From Candidatus Poribacteria bacterium (GTDB lineage: Bacteria > Poribacteria > WGA-4E > WGA-3G), in contig OZ246958.1 of NCBI GenBank assembly GCA_965232115.1, forward strand, positions 4,806,991-4,870,990: a stretch of 64,000 bases of DNA. Direction: 5' to 3'. This document shows positions 1 through 56,018 of this stretch, piece by piece (the first letter of the stretch is position 1; each line of letters starts with the position of its first letter). The position numbers and the translations under genes are program-made. The notes below the pieces were generated by a model. That model was not told the origin of the DNA. It made no database searches and was given only the letters and a program-made list of their open reading frames with translations.

Positions 1-58
1 CGAATTTGAAACATTGCTGGCGAAAATAGAACATCTCAAACAGGAAGAACCGTTATGA
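1..58 (+). CDS. 3' end of an upstream ORF (partial); its stop overlaps the next start as ATGA
   Basis: Frame 2 is open from the window edge to TGA at 56-58. It overlaps the ATG at 55, which suggests translational coupling with the nucleotidyltransferase gene. Confidence 0.25.
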   Translation, partial: EFETLLAKIEHLKQEEPL

Positions 59-369
59 AATACGGTTTATCAAATAGCACCCTCCAAAAAATTCAGGGCG
101 TTTTAAGCCATTATCCTCAAGTTGAAAAAGCAATTTTGTACGGTTCGCGCGCCACAGGTACCTACCGAAACGGTTCTGATATCGACCTTACGCTTTACGG
201 TGATGCCTTAACGCACAGCATACTCTCCCGAATTGATACCGAACTCGACGATCTTCTGCTACCCTACACAATTGACTTATCCATTTTTCATCAGATTGAC
301 AATCCTGCTATGGTTGAGCAAATTCAACGCATCGGGGTAAACTTTTATGAGAGATACGGAGAGGTCTAA
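55..369 (+). CDS. Nucleotidyltransferase-domain protein (MNT-like antitoxin type, Pol-beta superfamily)
   Basis: GSxATGTxxxxSDIDL motif typical of minimal nucleotidyltransferases; 104 aa. Confidence 0.7.
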   Translation: MKYGLSNSTLQKIQGVLSHYPQVEKAILYGSRATGTYRNGSDIDLTLYGDALTHSILSRIDTELDDLLLPYTIDLSIFHQIDNPAMVEQIQRIGVNFYERYGEV

Positions 370-402
370 CTTCAGGACTATTTACAATAACCCATTTTTC
401 AC

Positions 403-431
403 TTGACATCAGTTAACAAATAGAGTATAAT
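403..431 (+). promoter_or_regulatory. Consensus sigma70 promoter (TTGACA-17 bp-TATAAT)
   Basis: Exact -35 TTGACA at 403-408 and -10 TATAAT at 426-431 with a 17-bp spacer. The identical promoter recurs inverted at 55987-56015. Confidence 0.5.
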
Positions 432-682
432 ATATCATAAGACTTTCCAAAGAGGTGAATATTGTATCAATCTCCAAAACGCTGGCGCAGAAACCGACAC
501 AACATTTTTAGGGACTCCAGAAGTTTCTGACTGACTATCAACCACTGACTGCTGATTGCTGACCGCTGACTGCTAACTCAAAAATGTTACACTTTTCGCC
601 AAATTATTTTTTTTACAGCAGAAAATTAAACATCAACGAACCCTTACGGCCACTATGTTCTCTAACGTTACACACTGGACAC

Positions 683-709
683 AAAATGTTACACCAGTGT
701 AACATTTTT
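683..709 (+). terminator. 26-bp perfect palindrome AAAATGTTACAC-CA-GTGTAACATTTT followed by a T-run; putative intrinsic terminator or operator
   Basis: Perfect 12-bp arms. TTTTT follows immediately. Conserved in copy B (55767-55792) with a compensating loop change. Confidence 0.4.
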
Positions 710-1062
710 AAGGCAAATTGCCGAAAAATATACCATTAAGTTAAAACTGTATTCACATCCGTATTTTCACAGAGGACCGATTTATTCAGCAGTCCAAACC
801 TGCGCGACACCGATCCTGCAAACCTTTGAAGCCACAATCCTGACACTGAAAAGCACCCGAAAATTTCAGAGTGCCGCTGAATCCAAACCCATCCCAAAAC
901 CCTAAGAACCCATGCCCTACCTACATTTATACCGCTTTCCCAAGTTTACAGATTTCCCATTTTACTCTGAAATTCAATAATCCGTGATGTAGACACAGAA
1001 AACTATCAACCCAGAAATATCTCTAATCCTGAAAACCCTAAAAATCCGGATTTTGACAAATA

Positions 1063-1095
1063 TCTGCTGACTGCCAATAGCCAATAGCCAATAGC
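1063..1095 (+). repeat. Short tandem repeats (CTGACTG, then CCAATAG x3) upstream of glyQS
   Basis: ctgctgactgccaatagccaatagccaatagcc. Same motif family as 529-580, 11074-11098, 17493-17555 and 55898-55935. Confidence 0.6.
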
Positions 1096-1189
1096 CATTT
1101 GAAAATCCTTTGCTTAAAGAAATCTATTATGCTACAATAAATCTGCATCAATCAATACCAAAACGGAGCGTGCTAAGCAAAAAACAGAT

Positions 1190-4100
1190 ATGACTCTTCA
1201 AGAAATAATTCTGACATTAGAGAAATTTTGGGCAGATCAAGGCTGCATTATCCAACAACCTTGTGATATAGAAGTCGGCGCAGGCACATTCAACCCTGCA
1301 ACGTTCTTGCGGTGCCTCGGACCAGAGCCGTGGAAAGTCGCTTATGTAGAACCTGTCCGGCGCCCGACCGATGGCAGATACGCCGAAAATCCATTCCGCG
1401 TTGGGGCATACTATCAATATCAGGTAATCCTCAAACCCGCACCTGAGAACGTACTACCGCTCTACCTTGAGAGCCTTTATAGTCTCGGTATCTCCCCCCG
1501 CAAGAACGATATCCGATTCGTCGAAGACGACTGGGAGTCCCCGACCCTCGGTGCCTCAGGACTCGGTTGGGAAGTCTGGTGGAACGGCGCAGAAGTAACA
1601 CAATTCACCTATTTTCAGCAGATGGGAAGCATCGATCTCGACCCGATATGTGCTGAGATTACCTACGGGCTTGAACGCATCGCACTTTACCTACAGGATG
1701 TCGATGACTTTTTCGATATTCGCTGGAACGAACACGTTAACTACGGCGATGTCCACCGGCAGAGCGAAGTCGAATACTCAACTTACAACTTCGAGCAGGC
1801 AAACGTCCAGATGCTTTTCGACCTCTTCAGCACCTACGAAAAAGAGACGCACGCCTGCTTAGATGCCGGGTTAGTGCTACCAGCGACCGACCACGTCCTG
1901 AAATGCTCTCACACCTTCAATATGCTCGATGCCCGCGGTGTCATCAGCGTCACAGAACGGGTGAGTTACATTGAACGCGTGCGACGACTCGCACAACGGA
2001 TTGCACGGGCATACGTCAAACAGCGTGAAGAAATGGAACATCCCCTCATGGGACGTTTCGGCACGGTATCGCCTTCCACCACCATAGATGAGGTTTCTAA
2101 CCGCACCGAACTAGCTCCCACCCCGGTAGATACGGTTTCTAACCGCACTGAAACCACTGAGCTCCTCTTTGAAATCGGCACCGAAGAGATACCAGCAGGT
2201 TATGTCCCACCTGCGCTTGAGCAGCTTCGCGAAATCGCAACCGACTCCCTTACAAACCACAGAATCCCATTCGGCGAAATTGAAGTCCTGGGTACACCAA
2301 GGCGTATCACACTCAGTGTCAAAGACATAAAAACGCTTCAAGAAAGCCAAGAAACAGAAGTGGTAGGTCCCCCAAAACGCGTCGCGTACGACGAAAACGG
2401 TGAACCTACAAAAGCCGCTATCGGTTTCGCAAAGACGCAAGGCGTGGAACTCTCAGCACTCCGCATCGTTGAAACCGAACGTGGAGAATACGTCGCCGCC
2501 ACTAAACTCGAAGTAGGCGAACCGACGCAAAAGGTGTTGCAAACGCTTCTGCCTGAATGGATCGAAACCCTCCGCTTCCTGAAAACCATGCGTTGGGAAA
2601 CGGAGTATAAAGGACAGCGCGGGTTTGCACGTTTCGCACGTCCCATCCGGTGGCTCCTTGTGCTGTTAGGGAACGAAGTTGTCAACTGTGTTTACGGAGG
2701 ACTGGATGCAGGACGTGTAACTTACGGGCACAGAGCCTTGCATCCGGAACCCATAAATTTGGCATCAGCGAACTTAGACAATTATACCGAAGAACTCCGT
2801 GCTGTCGGTGTAGTCGTTAGTCAAAACGAGCGGCGCGAGACAATCAAAAAACAGGTAACACGTATCTTAAAAGCAGAAGGGTGTCTCCCAAAACTCGACG
2901 ACGAACTACTCGATACGGTGAATTACCTCGTAGAGAACCCACAACCTATCGTCGGCAATTTTAGTGAGTCGCATCTGGAAATACCGCCTGAAGTGCTAAT
3001 CACAGCCATGAAGAAGCATCAACGCTATTTTCCAATGTGGAAAGACGACACGGCACTTACGGCGAAATTCATTACAATCTCCAACGGGACAGATGGCAAT
3101 AGTGATGGCGTTCGACACGGAAACGAACGCGTACTCCACGCCAGACTCAACGATGCCGAGTTTTTCTACAATGAAGATCAGAAAACCAGTCTTGCGGATA
3201 AGGTAGAACGTTTAGGCGCAGTTATTTTTCATACCAAACTCGGTTCACTCTTCGAGAAATCAGAACGGCTTAAAGCACTCGTTTCGTTTATCGGTAAACA
3301 GCTGCAGCTCGAAGAAACAATCGTCTGTCATGCAGAACGCGCAGCTTGGCTCTCTAAGGCAGATCTGACAACCCAAATGGTCATCGAATTCCCATCACTG
3401 CAGGGTATTACGGGGAAATATTACACCCAAAACTCCGGTGAAGAGGAACCCGTCGCTATTGCCATCGCCGAACACTACCAACCCCTTGGCGCAGATACAC
3501 CACTGCCCGAAACCGAAATCGGCGCGATCGTCTCTATTGCCGATAAAATTGACACCATCGTCGGATATTTCGGGATAGAAGAACGTCCAACAGGCTCGCA
3601 AGACCCGTACTCGCTACGACGACATGCCCTTGGGACAATCCGTATCCTCCAAGACCGACAGCTTCCGCTCGCTTTAGATGCCATCGTCCAAAAAGCCGTC
3701 TCACTGTACAAGGTAGCGTTAGCCGACGACACACAAACGAGTGTCCTGAACTTCATCAAAGAACGCCTACGCGTCATCTTGTTGCTGACAGAGCAATACG
3801 CTCCCGACCTCGCCGATGCCGTCTTAGCAGTTGGCAATGTAGACATTATCAACATTCTCAAACGTGCCAACGCACTTGCCGAATTTCGCTTGACACCAAA
3901 TTTTGAGGAAGTATATAATGCACTAAATCGGGTCCTGAGGATTTTACCACAGAATCCCCCAGAAACCGTAGATGCTACGCTGTTGCATGACGATGCCGAA
4001 AAGCAACTGTTCGACCTTATCACTGAAGTAGAACCGAACTTTAAGCAAAGCGTTCAGGAACGCGACTATGCCAAACTTCTAACACAACTCGCCGCTTTAC

Positions 4101-4249
4101 AACCAGCAATAGACACATTCTTTGATGAGGTGCTGGTCATGGCGAAAGAACCCGCACTCCGCACAAACCGATTGGCATTGTTGAACCGAATCGGACGAAA
4201 CATTTATGCTATCGCAGATCTTACAAAACTTGTAATCGCAGGGAAATAA
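1190..4249 (+). CDS. glyQS: Glycine--tRNA ligase, fused alpha (GlyQ) and beta (GlyS) subunits
   Basis: N-terminal 300 aa is the GlyQ signature ([18 protein letters not shown]). The remaining ~690 aa is GlyS-like. One ORF of 1019 aa. Confidence 0.9.
2088..2158 (+). repeat. Two in-frame copies of the GGTTTCTAACCGCAC palindromic element in the glyQS inter-domain linker
   Basis: gaggtttctaaccgcaccg and acggtttctaaccgcactg encode VSNRTE twice exactly at the alpha/beta junction. The same element follows stop codons at 8288-8318 and 8712-8746. Confidence 0.5.
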
Positions 4250-4422
4250 CAAATAGCAGTCAGGTCGTTCTGTGCTGCGCACGCCACTTTCAGCCGTGAG
4301 CGGTCAGTCACTCGCTTGTGGAAAATAAAAACGTTTGTGACTGCTATACGGTTTAACTGACAACTGAAAGTGAGCGTAGTGAACGTACTGACAACTGACA
4401 ACTATAAAACGAGAGGAAAAAC

Positions 4423-7400
4423 ATGAAACGACGCGTTGAATATCTGCTGTGGCAGACACACCTTATTCTCTTATGTATCGCTGCTACCGCCTTTCTGATG
4501 GGATGCGGTGAGAAGGAGAATAGGGACATTATCGAAGCGCGAGCCGCCATTGTTCGCGGGGATTATACCGCCGCACAAGCCGCCGCTGAAAGAACAGAAG
4601 CTGGAAACCAAGAAGCGACGCACTTACGCGCCTTCTTGCAAAATCGGACACGCACTGATGCCAACAGTTGGCATCAAGCCATTGCAGCGTCAAACGCGTA
4701 TCTCGAAACATTGGCTACCGACATCCGCGCGATCTCATTACAAGAAGATCCTGACTCCGACGAACTCGATCGACAAGAAAGACTCACCCGTTCACAGAAC
4801 GCTATCTCTGGACTCTTTGCCCTGTCACTCGCTGAGGCGGTCGAAAAACGGGCAGAACTGCTATCCGAACTCACCATACCCGCAGACACCGGGGTCGTCA
4901 TAGCACTTTTAGCTGCGGAAAAGTGTTATCAATCTAATGCCCGGGCAGCTGCCAGACAACTGATAACCCAACTTGGAGATGGAGAACGCGTTGCTGAATT
5001 ACTCCAACAAGCAACACACCATTCAGACACAGCCGTACAAAAAGAAGCAATCCGCCACCTCGGTGCCATGCGTAAACCTGACTTTATACCGGTCTTTGAA
5101 GATGCGCTCGCCAAAACCGATAGCTCACCAGAGGTCGCGTATAGAGCAATCGTCGCTCTTGAACAACTCAGAAGGGTACTCCCCGATGGTACAGCCATTG
5201 TAACCGGACTGCAACTTGCACTGAAACATAACAGTGCTCAAGTTCGGATGCACGCCGCAAAACTCATCGGAGCCATCCAAGCCCAAACCGCTGTGCCCGA
5301 CCTTATCAGGCTCCTCGCGGATCCGAATACTTATGTCAAAGATACAGCCATAGATGCCCTTAACCGCATAGGCGAACCCGCGGTTGCACCACTGATTGAG
5401 GTCCTCAACACAAAAGCACACAACCTCATCCCTGACGAAGATAGCGGTTTCACCACAGAATACCAATACATCGCGAGTGCATACATCGACGATTTATGGA
5501 TGAAAAAATACCGAATCGGGACACAATCCGCTGCAATCAAAGCACTCGGACTGCTCCAAGCAGAAGCCGGCGCACAGCCACTCATAAATGAACTATCAAA
5601 CGAAGAATTACAAACAGAAGCCTTAGCAGCACTCGTCCAGATGCGCAACGTCGCTGTGCCTTTTCTGATTGATGCCCTTAAAAACGCCTCTGATGCAATT
5701 CGCGTACAGGTCGCAGATACGCTCGGACAAATCGGGGATCGGCGCGCAATAGTACCTCTCATTGAAGCACTAAATACAGATCCACATAAAGAGGTGAAAG
5801 CATTCGCAGCGATAGGACTTGGTAATATGTACGCCCGCGGCGAAAACAACAGCGCAGTCACGGCACTCACCAACGCACTCTCCTATGACGATACCACTGC
5901 CACTAACGCAGCGGAGGCGCTTGGAAAAATCAGCGTCACCACAGAAGATGCCGTCCAAAAACTGATTATCATTGCGCTCGATAAACAGATGCGTGAAACC
6001 TTGCGCGCTGCAGCACTTACCGCACTCTGGCGACTCAAACCGGAAAAAGCAGTTCAACCGATGCTACTCCTCACGTTCAGCGACGAAACCAGCCCCGTCC
6101 TCCGTGCCAGTGCCGTCAAAACTTTGAGCCGCATAAAAGCACCTGAAACCGTGCCTATTTTGACATGGATGCTCTCTACACGATTCGATGAAATCTCAGA
6201 TTTTCAGAGGCACATGAAACGCGAGTATAAAACGCTTGACACACTTCGAACACAAGTTGATTCCTTCCAGATTCAGTGGACCCCTGACTACCCACAAACC
6301 AACTACCGCACATGGGGTGAACTTAAACCGATTCCCAGTCTCGTCCGTAGTGAAGTTGCCCGGGCACTTGGCGTTATCAAAGGAGAAACCGTCATAGAAC
6401 CCTTAGTTCGCGCACTTGAAGACGACGGACGTGCTACGGTGCGACAGAGCGCAGCATGGGCACTCGGTGAAGTCAAAGGCGACCCGACAATCGCACCACT
6501 TGTAAATGCACTGAAAAAGGATAAACAAGGCGTCGTCCGGCAAGAAGCAGCCATTGCCTTGGGAAAAATCAAAGGACAAAAAGTTGTCGATCCGCTTGTA
6601 GATGCGCTGAAAAATGATAAGTATGAAACGACACGCTTTCAAGCCGCAAAGGCTCTCCGAGAAATCCAAGCCGGAGATGAAGGGCTTGTTGATGTTGTCA
6701 AGAAGGGGTTAGGAAACTTTGATGACGGATATGAAGTCCAATCCGTACAAGACGAAGTCATCGGCGCACTAATCAAAGATGGAAATGTTGCAACATCTAC
6801 ATTCGCAGTCGAGGCATTAAAATCTGCCGATGATGAGTGGACGCGATGGGCACTTGTACATGTTATCGGCACACTGAGTAAAAAACCCGCGCTTGATGCA
6901 ATGGTGGCAGAACTGAATCATCCGAGCTTCGTCGTCCGTAAACGGGTGACAGAAACGCTCGGCGGTTTCAAAGAACGGAGCGTTGTCGATTCATTAATTA
7001 TTGTTCTCGAAAACACCGATGAGATGAAATCCATACGTGCTGGCGCTGCCAATGCACTGGCTGGACTCAAAGACGAACGCGCTGCAGCAGCACTCCTGAA
7101 CGCACTCACCGATGAAAACGCCGAAGTCCGGTTGAGAGCCGTCACAGGCTTAGGAAACCTCAAGGATGCAAAAGCCGTCGCGAAACTCAGCGAAATTCTT
7201 GAGAATCCGTTAGAACCAGATGATGTCCGCGCCGCCGCTGCAACTGCTCTCGGTAACATCGCCGATAAAACAACCGAACCCGCTCTGATCCGCGCGTTAG
7301 ACATCCGCGTAGGAAATATCTCCAAAAACGCTATTATTGCTCTCGGTAAACTCGAAAGCGAAGCCGCTATCCCAAAACTCATCGCTATCCTTGAGGATAA

Positions 7401-8271
7401 ACGGATCCCATTGGATGCCAGTACAAACGCGTTAGCCAATGCCTCATCACGGACAAAAGCCGCAATTGCTCTTAGCGAAATCGGTGGATCCCGTGCCGCT
7501 GAAGCACTCGGGAAACGTCTCATTGACGACACAGAATATATCGTCGCTCTTGAGGACGCAGCAAACAGGAAAGCTATCGGTGCTGATGACCTCAAACGAA
7601 ATTGGAGTTGGGAAGCCTTCGTCAACGCTGGCAAAAAACTCGACTTACCAGCGTTCGTTGCTCCCAAAATGGCTGAGCGTACAGCGGATACGTGGGAAAA
7701 TCATCAGGTCAGAAACGCCGCAACGGTTGCCCTCGGTAAATCTGGCACTGTTACGGATACCTCCTATTTTAAAGAACTCTTAACCGATCCGGTTGTGGAT
7801 ATCCGAAAAGCCGCGGCACTCGCCATCGGACAAGCTGGAATCCGGGAACTCACGCCAGAACTCATCCAGATAATGACAGGTGAAACCGAAGTCAACAAGG
7901 ATGTCCGGCGCGCCGCTACACAAGGACTCGGCGAAATCGCTGATGAAACAACAACCGATATCCTCATCGAAGTTATGAATAACGACGATAACCACGTCGA
8001 AATTCGCCGCGATGCGTCAAGGGCATTGGGTAATATCGGAACCGACAAAGCGGTAGATGCGTTAGTCAAAAAACTCAGAGCACTGCATGAAGCCCAAATT
8101 ACAAGAGGGCTCCGCCTTGACACCATCAAGGCTCTTGGCGATGCAAAAAACGCGAACGCCATCGCAGTGTTAGAATTGGTTCTCAAAGACCAAGACGCAG
8201 AGATTCACTTCCAAGCTGCTGCTGCACTTTTTGAAATTACAGGTGAGGGCTACGGCTACAACCGCATCTAA
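4423..8271 (+). CDS. Large HEAT/PBS-lyase-repeat lipoprotein
   Basis: Signal peptide with lipobox (LMGCG). Dozens of HEAT-like repeats (VRxxAAxALGxIxxxxAVxPLxxxLxD) across 1282 aa. Confidence 0.75.
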   Translation: MKRRVEYLLWQTHLILLCIAATAFLMGCGEKENRDIIEARAAIVRGDYTAAQAAAERTEAGNQEATHLRAFLQNRTRTDANSWHQAIAASNAYLETLATDIRAISLQEDPDSDELDRQERLTRSQNAISGLFALSLAEAVEKRAELLSELTIPADTGVVIALLAAEKCYQSNARAAARQLITQLGDGERVAELLQQATHHSDTAVQKEAIRHLGAMRKPDFIPVFEDALAKTDSSPEVAYRAIVALEQLRRVLPDGTAIVTGLQLALKHNSAQVRMHAAKLIGAIQAQTAVPDLIRLLADPNTYVKDTAIDALNRIGEPAVAPLIEVLNTKAHNLIPDEDSGFTTEYQYIASAYIDDLWMKKYRIGTQSAAIKALGLLQAEAGAQPLINELSNEELQTEALAALVQMRNVAVPFLIDALKNASDAIRVQVADTLGQIGDRRAIVPLIEALNTDPHKEVKAFAAIGLGNMYARGENNSAVTALTNALSYDDTTATNAAEALGKISVTTEDAVQKLIIIALDKQMRETLRAAALTALWRLKPEKAVQPMLLLTFSDETSPVLRASAVKTLSRIKAPETVPILTWMLSTRFDEISDFQRHMKREYKTLDTLRTQVDSFQIQWTPDYPQTNYRTWGELKPIPSLVRSEVARALGVIKGETVIEPLVRALEDDGRATVRQSAAWALGEVKGDPTIAPLVNALKKDKQGVVRQEAAIALGKIKGQKVVDPLVDALKNDKYETTRFQAAKALREIQAGDEGLVDVVKKGLGNFDDGYEVQSVQDEVIGALIKDGNVATSTFAVEALKSADDEWTRWALVHVIGTLSKKPALDAMVAELNHPSFVVRKRVTETLGGFKERSVVDSLIIVLENTDEMKSIRAGAANALAGLKDERAAAALLNALTDENAEVRLRAVTGLGNLKDAKAVAKLSEILENPLEPDDVRAAAATALGNIADKTTEPALIRALDIRVGNISKNAIIALGKLESEAAIPKLIAILEDKRIPLDASTNALANASSRTKAAIALSEIGGSRAAEALGKRLIDDTEYIVALEDAANRKAIGADDLKRNWSWEAFVNAGKKLDLPAFVAPKMAERTADTWENHQVRNAATVALGKSGTVTDTSYFKELLTDPVVDIRKAAALAIGQAGIRELTPELIQIMTGETEVNKDVRRAATQGLGEIADETTTDILIEVMNNDDNHVEIRRDASRALGNIGTDKAVDALVKKLRALHEAQITRGLRLDTIKALGDAKNANAIAVLELVLKDQDAEIHFQAAAALFEITGEGYGYNRI

Positions 8272-8287
8272 TCGCCTATTTTCCCTT

Positions 8288-8318
8288 TTTAATCGGTAGG
8301 CGAGGTTTCTAACCTCGC
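8288..8318 (+). repeat. Palindromic element CGGTAGGCGAGGTTTCTAACCTCGCC just after the stop codon
   Basis: Perfect hairpin GGCGAGGTT/AACCTCGCC around a TCTAA loop. Family member of 8712-8746. Confidence 0.55.
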
Positions 8319-8377
8319 CAATGTTAATGTCCAATTAATTCTAAAATCTACCATATTTTTTTATTTAGGAGCGTTAC

Positions 8378-8701
8378 ATGGCTTTCTTTGAATTACGGCA
8401 ATACAGAACGCAACCCGGGCAACGCGAGAATTGGGTCAAATACATGGAAGAGACCGTTATCCCCTTCCAAATTTCTAAAGGGATGGTCGTCATCGGCAGC
8501 TTCATCGGTGAAGAAGAGGACGACCTTTACGTCTGGATCCGCCGCTTTGAGAGCGAAGCACAGCGCGAACAACTCTACGCAGCCGTTTATGAAGATGACC
8601 GGTGGTTAAACGAAATTTCACCCCGCGTCGGCGAATTGATTGATAGGGAAAAAATCGTCGTCACACGCCTCAAACCCACTTCTCGCTCAGCACATCAATA
8701 G
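8378..8701 (+). CDS. NIPSNAP-family protein (dimeric alpha/beta barrel)
   Basis: 107 aa. ELRxY...G...GxF..E.G..N.V..L..Y.....R...R.....D..W pattern typical of NIPSNAP. Confidence 0.6.
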   Translation: MAFFELRQYRTQPGQRENWVKYMEETVIPFQISKGMVVIGSFIGEEEDDLYVWIRRFESEAQREQLYAAVYEDDRWLNEISPRVGELIDREKIVVTRLKPTSRSAHQ

Positions 8702-8711
8702 TCCTCGTTAA

Positions 8712-8746
8712 AAGACCCGGTAGGTGCGGTTTCTAACCGCACCGGA
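8712..8746 (+). repeat. Palindromic element CCGGTAGGTGCGGTTTCTAACCGCACCGGACC after the stop codon
   Basis: Perfect inverted repeat GGTGCGGTT / AACCGCACC. Could act as a terminator hairpin, but no T-tract follows. Confidence 0.55.
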
Positions 8747-8814
8747 CCTTACCGAATTATTTTTTTAACTTCATTTACCTTGCGCCCCTGTTAAAAGTCC
8801 AAAACGGAGGTGAT

Positions 8815-9564
8815 TTGATGGGACCTGAAGAAAAATATCTGTTTGACCTTTGGGGCTATATCAACATCGAAAACGTCTTAGAAACAGACGAACTCGCTGC
8901 ATTGAATGCCCTAATCGACGCACAAGAGTACCCCGATCCCGTCGACGATGATGTTTATTCACAGAGGTTCGGCGGATTCTTGAATTGGGAGAACGACGCA
9001 TTCCGAAAACTCCTCAACCATCCGCGCATCATGCCGTTTTTGGCGGAGATCGTCGGTCCAAAATTCCGACTCGATCACGTCTACGGCATCCTTATGATAG
9101 AGGGAAACCCAGGCGGAAGGCTCCACGGCGGCGGTACGCCTTACGACCCAGCGCAGTACTACGTCTTTCGGAATGACCGGATGTATAACGGCTTAACCGT
9201 CGCATCATGGGCATTGACCGATATGCTGCCAGGACACGGAGGTTTCTGCTGTATTCCCGGAAGCCACAAGAGTAATTATCGGTGTCCAGACGATTTCCGA
9301 CCCGTTGAGGAGAACAAAATCTGCATGGCACCGGTACATCAGAAGGCGGGAGATGTCGTCATCTTCACAGAAGCATTGACGCACGGCACCCTCCCCTGGA
9401 CCGCTTCACATGAACGCCGTTCAATTCTGTTCAAGTACTCACCAGGGCACTCGTCATGGGGGCAAGGCAGATACGACGATGAACTCCGCAACCTAATGGC
9501 AGATGAGGATCAGAAGTTGATGCTGGAGCCGCCTTACGTCGCAAATCGGAAACAAGTGGTTTAG
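8815..9564 (+). CDS. Phytanoyl-CoA dioxygenase (PhyH) family Fe(II)/2-oxoglutarate dioxygenase
   Basis: PhyH-like HxD...H signature (HGGGTPYD, IPGSHK). One of three paralogs in the window. Confidence 0.7.
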   Translation: MMGPEEKYLFDLWGYINIENVLETDELAALNALIDAQEYPDPVDDDVYSQRFGGFLNWENDAFRKLLNHPRIMPFLAEIVGPKFRLDHVYGILMIEGNPGGRLHGGGTPYDPAQYYVFRNDRMYNGLTVASWALTDMLPGHGGFCCIPGSHKSNYRCPDDFRPVEENKICMAPVHQKAGDVVIFTEALTHGTLPWTASHERRSILFKYSPGHSSWGQGRYDDELRNLMADEDQKLMLEPPYVANRKQVV

Positions 9565-9589
9565 GAATATTTTCAGTGTTACACCCTTT

Positions 9590-9725
9590 TTGCTGGCGAG
9601 GTTTTGCGGCGTACTCGCCCCCGGTGAAGCCCACACGGGCTTCATACCCGGTGAATGCCCATAAGGCATTCACACCGTTGATTCTGATTTGGAATGCCGT
9701 AAGGCATTCATATCGTTGATTCATG
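9590..9725. terminator. Cluster of three or four hairpins (GAAGCCC..GGGCTTC; GAATGCC..GGCATTC x2) between convergent genes
   Basis: Perfect short stems with 4-6 nt loops, directly repeated. Lies between the convergent PhyH and enolase-superfamily genes. Confidence 0.4.
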
Positions 9726-9767
9726 CGATGTGCATTCAAACTTCGCCTACTAATAACTAACCAATCT

Positions 9768-11003
9768 CTACCAATCAGCGACACTGCCATCTGTATCGTA
9801 ATAGTATTCGCCACCTAACTCCTCCGTATAGGTGTCAAGCGTCTGTTCAGCCTCTTGCGTGTTAATCTCAAACCCAAGTCCCGGTTTTGTCGGCAATTCG
9901 ATGTGACCATCTGTAACCTGCCACTCCTCAGTAAACAAACCGTCGCCCAAACCGGCATCAATTTGCTCTTGAATTAGGAAATTCGGCACAACAGCATCAA
10001 CATGAAGGGAGGCAGAAAAAGCAACCGGTCCAATAGCGCAATGCGGTGCAATGTGCATATAGTAAACCTCCGCCATGTTCGCAATTTTCTTGAGTTCCGT
10101 AATACCACCAGCGTGAGAGGTATCGGGTTGTAAGTAAGCGACCACCTGTTTCTCAAAAATCTCGCGGAACCCCCAACGCGTCAGCAGGCGTTCACCCGTC
10201 GCAATCGGAAACGGCACATGGTCAGAAATCAGTTTCAGCGCATCTACATTCTCTTGCGGAATCGGTTCCTCAACGAACATCGGACGCATGCCTTTAAGTT
10301 CATGACAAATTTCAATAGCGAGCGCAGGGGTCATCTTACCGTGAAAATCAAACGCAAGTTCGACATCCGGTCCCACCCACTCGCGCATGAGATACGCACG
10401 TTCTACAAATTCGTCAATAACCGCGGGAGGTTCATGTCCACGCCACTTGCCACCGGGACCAGTCTTAAACGCTGTGTAGCCACCTTTTTGTTGTAAAAAT
10501 TCGAGACGCGCTTTCGCAGCGGCTTTGCCTTCGTCTGTTAAACTCCCGATGCCCCAGTGCGCATAAACGCGGATACGGTCGCGCACAGCACCACCCAACA
10601 ATTGATAGGCAGGTACATCGTGGTATTTACCAGCAATGTCCCACAACGCCTGATCAATACCGGACAAAGCAGACATGAGGATGTTTCCGCCGCGGAAGAA
10701 AGCCGAGCGATAGACGTGCTGCCAATGATGCTCAATCCGTAGCGGATCTTTACCGATAAAATAATCGGCAAGCTCCTCAACAGCTGCACAAGTACTTTTA
10801 GGTTTACCCTCAAGCGTGGTTTCACCCCAGCCGATGATACCCGTGTCTGTCGTAATCTTGACCAAGCGCGTCCGACGGCGTGGGAAGAATTGTTCAATCT
10901 TAGCAATTTTCATTTTTTTTACTATGTGATCCTGGGCTAAAGAAATGCCCAAGCAAAACCCCTCTATTTTGTTTCGGGTAGCACGTAGGTTGGGTTGAAA
11001 CAC
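9768..11003 (-). CDS. Enolase-superfamily dehydratase (mandelate racemase/MLE family; galactonate/mannonate dehydratase-like)
   Basis: N-terminal KITTDTGIIGWGE capping-domain motif. TIM-barrel length is typical of acid-sugar dehydratases. Confidence 0.8.
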   Translation of the reverse strand: MFQPNLRATRNKIEGFCLGISLAQDHIVKKMKIAKIEQFFPRRRTRLVKITTDTGIIGWGETTLEGKPKSTCAAVEELADYFIGKDPLRIEHHWQHVYRSAFFRGGNILMSALSGIDQALWDIAGKYHDVPAYQLLGGAVRDRIRVYAHWGIGSLTDEGKAAAKARLEFLQQKGGYTAFKTGPGGKWRGHEPPAVIDEFVERAYLMREWVGPDVELAFDFHGKMTPALAIEICHELKGMRPMFVEEPIPQENVDALKLISDHVPFPIATGERLLTRWGFREIFEKQVVAYLQPDTSHAGGITELKKIANMAEVYYMHIAPHCAIGPVAFSASLHVDAVVPNFLIQEQIDAGLGDGLFTEEWQVTDGHIELPTKPGLGFEINTQEAEQTLDTYTEELGGEYYYDTDGSVADW

Positions 11004-55288: not shown

Positions 55289-55699
55289 TGTATTCTTCTC
55301 CTTGGTTTATGCCACTCATGTCAAAGGCAGTTAGCGTGACAACCTTCTTGTACGCCCAATCTTTATCAACCCCGGCATGTCTTTATTCACCAAGATGTAG
55401 ACGGAAGCCATCATTTTACCTTCTTTTTACCACTATCACAGCGTATCTCATAAATATCTTGTAGGGCTGGGATATGAAAACCATTACATTTATAGTAAAG
55501 TTTAGAATTAAAGAAACATTTCAGGACTCCAAAACATACTGCAGGAGGGGTTTGTAACCCCGACAGAGTGTCTCATTAATTATCGGACCCAGTGTAATAG
55601 AATAAGATAGCACAGAAGAAAAAGAACGTCAAGTGGAAACCGCTCCTACCAATTTCAGGATGTGTAAATATTTTGGCAGCGGATTATCAGAATCAGGAT

Positions 55700-56018
55700 T
55701 TATAGAATTATACGAACATGAATATGTATTTAACTTAACGGTATATTTTTCAGGCGATCTGGCTTAAAAATGTTACACTCGTGTAACATTTTGTGTGTGG
55801 CGTGTAACGTTAGAGAATCCAGTCACAGTAAGGGTTTATTGACGTTTAATTTTTCTTTTAAAAAAAAATAATTTGGCGAAAAGTGTAACATTTTTTTGTG
55901 GCTGTTGGCTATCGGCTATTGGCAGTCAGTCGTTAGTATTTTGTAGATTGATACAATATTCATCTCTTTGGAAAGTCTTATGATATATTATACTCTATTT
56001 GCTAAATTTTGTCAAGTT
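55700..56018 (-). repeat. Copy B of the inverted duplicated cassette
   Basis: Reverse complement aligns to 403-765 with the same promoter, GTTACAC half-sites and palindrome (55767-55792). It lacks the A-specific 100-bp block. Confidence 0.6.
55987..56015 (-). promoter_or_regulatory. Consensus sigma70 promoter on the minus strand (TTGACA-17-TATAAT)
   Basis: tgtcaa at 56010-56015 and attata at 55987-55992 on the plus strand. The spacer is identical to the copy-A promoter. Confidence 0.5.

Follow-up and report, generated by a model that had tools for sequence, protein, structure and literature searches.

The 64-kb window analysed here, a stretch of 64,000 nt from contig OZ246958.1 of a Candidatus Poribacteria bacterium, carries four copies of a short palindrome, two located shortly after stop codons and two read in frame inside glyQS, the gene for a fused glycyl-tRNA synthetase (GlyRS). 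We conclude with considerable confidence that this palindrome is the repetitive extragenic palindromic element (REP) of a REP/RAYT system (RAYT, REP-associated tyrosine transposase) carried by a Candidatus Poribacteria clade, and that the copies in the glyQS linker are decayed relics of it.

The REP family and the neighbouring transposase gene

The core 11-mer of the element, GGTTTCTAACC, starts at positions 2092, 2134, 8304 and 8728 of the window, in all cases on the + strand. Dinucleotide shuffles gave an expectation of 0.05 copies and 0 of 100 shuffles attained four, in agreement with an earlier note on this DNA that had proposed a dispersed palindromic element resembling a REP or a miniature inverted-repeat transposable element (MITE). 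Similarity among the four sites spans about 29-32 nt and can be summarized as (CC)CGGTAG-GYGNGGTT-TCT-AACCNCRCC. Both extragenic copies are perfect hairpins with a 9-bp stem and a 3-nt TCT loop, which fold at -15.6 kcal/mol (z -4.4; 8296-8319) and -17.8 kcal/mol (z -3.6; 8720-8743), and their stems differ by compensatory changes. The same note had located these copies at 8288-8318 and 8712-8746; two hairpins do follow stop codons, at distances of 18-24 nt, but the coordinates are corrected here to those just given. The genes on their 5' side are both on the + strand (Table 1), and the window copies are singletons rather than inverted doublets. Among the loci fetched from relatives, which are cited by numbers with the prefix L, the site after the NIPSNAP gene is filled in L001, L123 and L127, with different loops, and empty in L125, L128 and others, and the REP of 8296 is missing from the equivalent site in L001. 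These differences are presence/absence polymorphisms, as expected of an element that is mobile or frequently deleted.

We scanned contigs from one genome per species with the pattern GTAGGNNNGGTTTCTAACCNNNCC, which itself imposes the GTAG head, and obtained at least 129 matches in at least 119 stretches. Candidatus Poribacteria metagenome-assembled genomes (MAGs) or chromosomes accounted for 116 of the 119 stretches listed, 12 of the 119 being from chromosome OY764061.1; the other three were from a Chloroflexota MAG, a Gemmataceae MAG and a Gammaproteobacteria bin that shares its sample with a Poribacteria bin. The motif is abundant elsewhere in Poribacteria genomes, so the concern that it might be absent outside this DNA does not apply. 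The stem positions left free by the pattern (n = 3) were perfectly complementary in 111 of the 129 matches listed, against a chance of 1 in 64. The consensus stem GTGCGG was found in 82 of the 129, and at least eight further stem variants (GCGAGG, GTTCGG, GCGCGG, GAGCGG, GCGGGG, GGCGGG, GACAGG and GGGCGG) were each accompanied by a matching right arm; the variant carried by the copy at 8296-8319 occurred nine times among the matches listed. As for location, 127 of these 129 matches lay outside long open reading frames (ORFs) and two lay inside. The palindrome forms a dispersed and almost always extragenic family, in which the stem is kept by compensatory changes. The element is a 24-nt palindrome headed by GTAG at its 5' end, with a G+C-rich stem of 9 bp that ends in GGTT/AACC and a loop of 3-4 nt, the extended consensus being cccG-GTAGGTGCGGTTTCTAACCGCACC-G. 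GTAG, which is also the 5' head of classical REPs (PMC3479197), is present on both extragenic window copies and on the second of the two genic copies. Among 12 intact copies recovered by a search for the core only, with no head imposed, eight carried GTAG and the remainder GCTG or TATG.

Inverted pairs are common in relatives, in which GTAGGTGCGG... is associated with a partner REP, GGCGCAGTTGGAAACAGCGCCTAC; such pairs also occur in L068 and L078. In L072, positions 3120-3479 consist of five tandem 84-bp units, each with one REP of the family described above (class 1) and one inverted partner REP, an arrangement similar to bacterial interspersed mosaic elements (BIMEs) or to REPINs. A reading of these units as an array of clustered regularly interspaced short palindromic repeats was ruled out: the 'spacers' recur as well, and the partner REP lies within them.

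We also examined the gene context of 228 REP-like hairpins in all of the fetched DNA. Between co-directional genes, the GTAG strand was the same as that of the genes in 72 cases and opposite in 40 (binomial p = 0.003); a further 46 hairpins were located between convergent genes and 23 between divergent genes, and the only copies in credible genes were those in glyQS and in a gene of L030. The two intact window hairpins are each located in a 3' untranslated region between co-directional genes, where they could, by analogy with other REPs, act by stabilising transcripts or by attenuating transcription. A reading of the window copies as intrinsic terminators was rejected, since a consensus scan of 8150-8900 called neither REP and the T-run that follows 8743 begins about 20 nt further on. 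Rfam covariance models, applied to window positions 1-10000 at E values up to 1, gave nothing relevant.

Candidate transposase genes were located by tblastn of the fetched loci, with the transposases of IS200, IS608 and the E. coli RAYT as queries. The two ORFs identified (Table 1) scored 119 and 122 bits against the equivalog model NF047646, for which the cutoff is 80, and 55 bits against Pfam Y1_Tnp. Their HUH motif is PDHLH and their tyrosine motif is YCYANP, and a regular expression combining HUH with Y[ILVM]xx[NQ]P accordingly retrieved no RAYT. Sequence matches in the PDB were to IS200/IS605-family transposases, with 2fyx as the best (E 1.7e-08) and the E. coli TnpAREP 4er8 among them (E 8.4e-05). 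In L084 REPs bracket the gene: one in forward orientation lies upstream (3868-3891), and an inverted one (4460-4483) and another forward one (4495-4518) lie downstream. In L064 a REP adjoins the gene on the upstream side, the sole side open to reading since the locus stops right behind the gene. A RAYT-type Y1 (HUH) gene is located next to REPs in two relatives and is bracketed in inverted orientation in one of them, and the arrangement in L084 is the one by which REP/RAYT systems are defined. Another candidate mobiliser, an IS605 TnpB (OrfB_IS605; L001, 6350-7447) about 215 nt downstream of a REP (region 6111-7447 for the two together), was rejected: this REP is located outside the insertion sequence, with no matching hairpin at the other end. 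The REP beside it is probably there by coincidence or because it served as a target for the insertion sequence.

Copies in the glyQS linker

According to the Pfam boundaries, the alpha and beta modules of GlyQS are separated by a linker of 44 residues (281-324), and both relic REPs fall within it. These REPs are in frame, as the earlier note had stated, and spaced 42 nt apart, but they are no longer hairpins. Their left arms carry G-to-A changes (GATGAGGTT, GATACGGTT), and RNA folding yielded -2.9 kcal/mol (z -0.28) for copy 1 and -5.8 kcal/mol (z -0.72) for copy 2, values at which shuffled sequences fold as well. As read from the two sequences, 28 of 32 positions agree between copy 2 and the extragenic copy at 8717-8748.

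The best 120 protein hits, at 83-93% identity, were all fused GlyQS proteins of 1010-1049 aa, those with names being from Candidatus Poribacteria, and their length differences fall in the linker. Among 121 orthologs, the class-1 peptide, centred on VGAVSNRTE, was present in one to four copies in 72; a second class with VGGI[S/C]NPD units was present in one to three copies in 34, a heptamer-repeat type reading YQLKEDL...LTDNRQL was found in seven, and 16 had linkers without any repeat. VGAVSNRTE is the exact translation of GTA GGT GCG GTT TCT AAC CGC ACC GAA, and in the relatives the linker peptide is encoded by the palindromic DNA itself rather than being shared as a peptide alone, a distinction on which the earlier note had made its interpretation depend.

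The presence of the motif in 72 of 121 orthologs, often in duplicate, might suggest that VSNRTE is a selected peptide with a role in GlyRS, its likeness to an extragenic palindrome being coincidental or secondary. We consider this extremely improbable, since the identity to the extragenic copies includes synonymous positions and a flank of non-coding type, CCCGGTAG, and since whole alleles swap the peptide for unrelated repeats or for nothing. The peptide also varies freely: of about 115 class-1 copies, as counted over the 121 orthologs with a regular expression that over-counts by at least four, 40 were exactly VGAVSNRT, and changes of G to D, of R to C, S, P or A and of T to A are tolerated. 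Finally, it is missing from the 18 distant fused GlyQS proteins that were read (33-66% identity). We infer that the encoded linker peptide is neutral.

The linker DNA was read for twelve orthologs. Two perfect 24-nt REPs are in frame in L125, together with a decayed copy and a 5'-truncated copy, and L127 has three REP copies. The copies in L001 and L131 retain an 8-bp Watson-Crick stem closed by a G-T pair, and those in L002 and in L123, the closest relative of the window, are decayed with uncompensated substitutions. Compensatory changes within glyQS, as predicted from peptides such as VSAVSNCTE, were dismissed once the L002 DNA showed uncompensated decay. The linker of L130 (GTG GGA GAG AAA ATC GAA ACG CGA ACC GAA) was considered as an ancient decayed copy, for which the similarity is too weak to call. 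Tandem Repeats Finder identified a 42-nt unit with 97% identity in L127 and 91% in L125, indicating that copy number changes by duplication of a 14-codon unit; in the window linker it reported no tandem repeat, only about 24 of the 42 nt being still similar. The linker and extragenic copies share identity at the DNA level, the linker copies have expanded as tandem 42-nt units and those of the window have decayed. The GTAG strand has a single stop-free forward frame, the other two meeting TAG and TAA as read from the sequence, and therefore only insertions in the stop-free frame could survive.

In L124 (10895-10960), a 27-nt segment, AGGGTTCCCACCCGTTACTGGGAAGGG, which has an inverted repeat of its own (TTCCCA/TGGGAA), is located within the right arm of the linker REP and yields VSNQGSHPLLGRGTE; protein P0070 is alike at the protein level.

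Intact linker copies of relatives fold at -17.8 kcal/mol, and it could be argued that the hairpin acts at the RNA level in glyQS, as a translational pause between the modules or as a processing site, hence the several palindrome classes. Such a role would fit the occupation of one linker by three repeat classes and the retention of perfect in-frame hairpins of this stability in some strains. It is nonetheless very unlikely, given that the stems have been destroyed without compensation in the window, L002 and L123, that 16 orthologs are repeat-free and that an unconstrained linker tolerating any in-frame insertion is the simpler explanation.

The earlier note had also suggested that the element helped to create the alpha-beta fusion. 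The genes glyQ and glyS would then have been separate, with the spacer occupied by a REP that came to be read through as a linker once the stop codon was lost. Such an origin would account for the location of the element exactly at the alpha/beta junction and for the last linker copy, which always abuts the beta-module start T-A/T-D-LLFEIG; extragenic REPs, moreover, are typically located just past stop codons. The orthologs speak against it. All 120 close orthologs are fused, with 0, 1, 2, 3 or 4 copies and 16 of them repeat-free; the syntenic relative L130, which is 66% identical, is fused without the element and has an unrelated linker; and no relative with split glyQ and glyS, let alone one with a REP between them, was encountered. 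We also performed an exhaustive profile-free search and considered the best 150 representatives of 50%-identity clusters. Identity ranged from 66% down to 33% among the representatives of about 1000 aa with end-to-end alignments, and the 18 distant representatives that were read were all fused, with linkers without the peptide. Two of the ten clusters looked up were named, Lentisphaeria with full-length members and Coriobacteriales, a name found only on a 724-aa member annotated as beta subunit; both names belong to phyla other than Poribacteria. Alignments of the unfused GlyS representatives start at about query residue 323. The fusion does not depend on the element, and its origin by read-through of a REP is highly improbable.

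Companion repeats, a second host gene and the history of the linker

The second GTAG-headed class of repeats (class 2) has a conserved asymmetry, GGAGGG...CCCGAC. The VGGISNPD linker units of other strains consist of class-2 DNA, GTAGGAGGGATTT[C/G]TAATCCCGAC, and copies of the class are scattered outside genes too; related loci spanning 1.2 Mb contain 29 of them. In the third linker type, as in L126 (10961 onward), ACTGACA-like heptamers form an inverted array, and the same heptamers, ACTGACAACTGACA, are found in tandem in intergenic DNA of the window at 4387-4400 (+) and at about 62549 (-). A flank module (Table 1) was found among 180 REPs on the 3' side in 13, inverted on the 5' side in 15 and on both sides in two. 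When it is present on both sides, the REP becomes the apex of a hairpin of about 100 nt, which folds at -28.5 kcal/mol in L085 (429-542). The module may be a MITE arm, a promoter-like box or something else.

The other host gene, located at 2992-4878 (-) in L030, encodes a GT39/PMT_2-like membrane glycosyltransferase of 628 aa, with an in-frame REP on the opposite strand reading ...STEGP-IVKSIITFIRRSVRLETAPTGGGA.... The site is filled, by 22 additional residues (IVKSIITFIRRSVRLETAPTGGGAD), in the query protein P0289 and 10 orthologs (11/120), and is empty, reading ...STEGFNTFGKWFG..., in about 105 of the 120 orthologs; P0289 has a further partial duplication. The inserted DNA consists of the flank module and a REP on the reverse strand, about 66 nt in all. 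No GT39 ortholog with an empty site was found within the DNA of the fetched loci. A protein search with the reverse-frame peptides GAVRNRTY and VRLETAPT yielded no candidate and is unreliable, as P0289 in the same database contains VRLETAPTG. The in-frame palindromes in these functional genes have filled and empty orthologous sites, with 0-4 copies in glyQS and 11 filled versus about 105 empty sites in GT39, as in Rickettsia palindromic elements (RPEs).

The linker types were interspersed on a neighbour-joining tree from which the linker had been excluded, and they travelled with the adjacent residues (GKW vs GRF). The patchy distribution on the tree and the GKW/GRF linkage point to allele exchange or repeated turnover.

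We propose a history that would explain these patterns. The RAYT would mobilise the hairpins as single-stranded DNA, and one copy, consisting of the element and a C-rich 5' flank, would have inserted into the 44-residue linker, an unconstrained segment, of a glyQS that was fused beforehand. The insertion would have taken the sole stop-free forward frame, in which GTA GGT GCG GTT TCT AAC CGC ACC is read as VGAVSNRT. The 42-nt unit may then have been duplicated and deleted by slippage or unequal recombination, with alleles exchanged between strains, to give the 0-4 copies per strain, and other repeat classes may have entered the same linker. The window linker copies are old relics in which point substitutions have destroyed the stem, and they would now serve only as a spacer peptide. 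The steps that we infer are RAYT-mediated insertion into the linker and recombination between linker alleles.

The linker copies might instead have arisen by gene conversion or recombination of extragenic REPs into a pre-existing similar sequence, and not by RAYT insertion. Linker alleles do look as if swapped as cassettes, the upstream GKW/GRF residues following the repeat class in a patchy manner on the tree, and perfect and decayed copies are found together in one gene in L125. Conversion leaves the origin of the first copy unexplained, however, and the clean filled versus empty site in GT39, with a REP and a flank module, is typical of insertion; we find this alternative barely credible.

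Several observations weigh against the interpretation of the palindrome as a REP of a RAYT system with relics in glyQS. The 64-kb window contains no RAYT gene, so that the link between REP and RAYT for the source genome depends on relatives, in which transposition by the Poribacteria RAYT is a prediction from sequence. A search for the core only, without an imposed head, recovered about 12 intact copies in 270 kb around glyQS, and the per-genome number is an estimate only. The patchy linker types require recombination or repeated turnover, as judged from the tree. No clean empty site marks the boundaries of the insertion in the glyQS orthologs that were read. Linkers without a REP and with a single copy are of similar length (1011 aa each for the proteins), and those without may be fully decayed copies or replaced alleles, while a replacement of 18 nt versus 42 nt, rather than a simple insertion, separates single-copy from two-copy alleles.

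A broader proposal would be that REPs and companion repeats are a recurrent protein building material in linkers and loops of many Poribacteria genes, with the glyQS linker as a true hotspot that at least three classes entered independently and with intact hairpins that might pause translation; we regard this as unlikely.

Other small palindromes were observed in the window. A perfect palindrome with 11-bp arms, AAAATGTTACA-nnnn-TGTAACATTTT, is found at 683-708 (loop ccag) and 55767-55792 (loop ctcg) and may represent an operator or a further family of small repeats. Two neighbouring small hairpins are located within 9431-9814, namely TGAAGCCC-acac-GGGCTTCA (9625-9644) and GTGAATGCC-cataa-GGCATTCAC (9651-9673), with ccggTGAA before each.

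Table 1. Location of glyQS, REPs and companion repeats in the window, and of RAYT genes in loci of relatives.
Feature	Location	Strand	Description
Fused glyQS, 1019 aa	1190-4249	+	alpha 3-280, linker 281-324 (nt 2030-2161), beta 325-880, DALR 924-1003; Pfam PF02091/PF02092/PF05746
Relic REP copy 1, glyQS linker	2084-2107	+	ATAGATGAGGTTTCTAACCGCACC; codes I-D-E-V-S-N-R-T (peptide context IDEVSNRTE); head ATAG, left arm mutated
Relic REP copy 2, glyQS linker	2126-2149	+	GTAGATACGGTTTCTAACCGCACT; codes V-D-T-V-S-N-R-T (context VDTVSNRTE); CCCCG before it, like extragenic copies
Intact extragenic REP	8296-8319	+	stem variant GTAGGCGAGGTTTCTAACCTCGCC; starts 24 nt past the stop (ends 8271) of the HEAT-repeat gene 4423-8271
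Flank module	8320-8355	+	aatgttaatgtccaattaattctaaaatctaccata; recurrent 3' flank '...gtgtctcattaattctaagatccactata' accompanies some REPs in relatives
Intact extragenic REP	8720-8743	+	family consensus GTAGGTGCGGTTTCTAACCGCACC; starts 18 nt past the stop (ends 8701) of the NIPSNAP gene 8378-8701
Class-2 REP	55541-55564	+	GCAGGAGGGGTTTGTAACCCCGAC; followed by the flank module seen at 8320-8355
RAYT ORF, 157 aa	L084:3963-4436		NCBIfam NF047646 'REP-associated tyrosine transposase' and Pfam Y1_Tnp
RAYT ORF, 157 aa	L064:7452-7925		NCBIfam NF047646 and Pfam Y1_Tnp

Comparison with known systems

These results document a REP/RAYT system in Candidatus Poribacteria. A full-text literature search for Poribacteria combined with 'repetitive extragenic palindromic' returned no relevant account, only an unrelated review. 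The REP/RAYT family is new in Poribacteria, and it is a known kind of system with no new mechanism. It illustrates that 'extragenic' elements can be read as protein and can provide, lengthen and reshape parts of proteins, namely the interdomain linker in an essential aminoacyl-tRNA synthetase and a loop in a membrane glycosyltransferase. The polymorphism of 0-4 copies and the filled and empty sites provide a natural series on the domestication or decay of selfish hairpin DNA in genes, and the repeats are usable as a strain marker. The attractive idea that the repeat made the GlyQ-GlyS fusion is removed.

Naturally fused alpha-beta GlyRS (GlyQS) is known from Chlamydia and plant organelles. As in these, the Poribacteria protein is a single polypeptide with an alpha module, a short linker and a beta module, whereas its linker is hypervariable within one clade and consists largely of mobile-repeat DNA.

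RPEs are about 100-150 bp in size, and we know of no RAYT linked to them. The Poribacteria element is shorter, 24 nt or about 66 nt with the flank module, is probably unrelated to RPEs in sequence and was found in two host genes as opposed to dozens. According to the account of Ogata et al. (2000, 2002) in one review, RPEs are palindromic selfish DNA inserted in frame in unrelated housekeeping genes (PMC10969869). The similarities, as far as that account goes, are the addition of a peptide segment without destruction of the protein and the presence or absence of the element among orthologs (PMC10969869). The element works like RPEs, and membership among them is implausible by length and host.

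Intragenic copies giving in-frame fusions have also been described for ERIC, BOX and cyanobacterial MITEs (PMC10969869). The Poribacteria element is likewise a small non-autonomous repeat that is tolerated in an ORF, and in relatives the REP is found at the apex of a composite hairpin of about 100 nt; the element differs from MITEs in its likely transposase, which is of the Y1 HUH and not of the DDE type. The earlier note had called an in-frame element in an essential gene unusual. Two in-frame copies in such a gene are indeed present, but the term is relative, since palindromic elements in frame are well documented for Rickettsia RPEs and other MITEs (PMC10969869).

The closest parallels are the E. 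coli REP/BIME-RAYT (TnpAREP) and Pseudomonas REPIN-RAYT systems, with which the Poribacteria system shares the 5' GTAG at the foot of a short G+C-rich hairpin (PMC3479197, PMC3116915). It also shares with E. coli and Pseudomonas REPs the many dispersed extragenic copies, the inverted pairs and arrays, and the adjoining IS200-like Y1 gene, which is bracketed in one relative. In contrast to these, the Poribacteria element is located in a different phylum, its stem is unrelated in sequence, some copies are in frame inside genes, and there are tandem 42-nt coding units. The Poribacteria stem is also perfect, whereas the E. coli TnpAREP needs an internal bulge.

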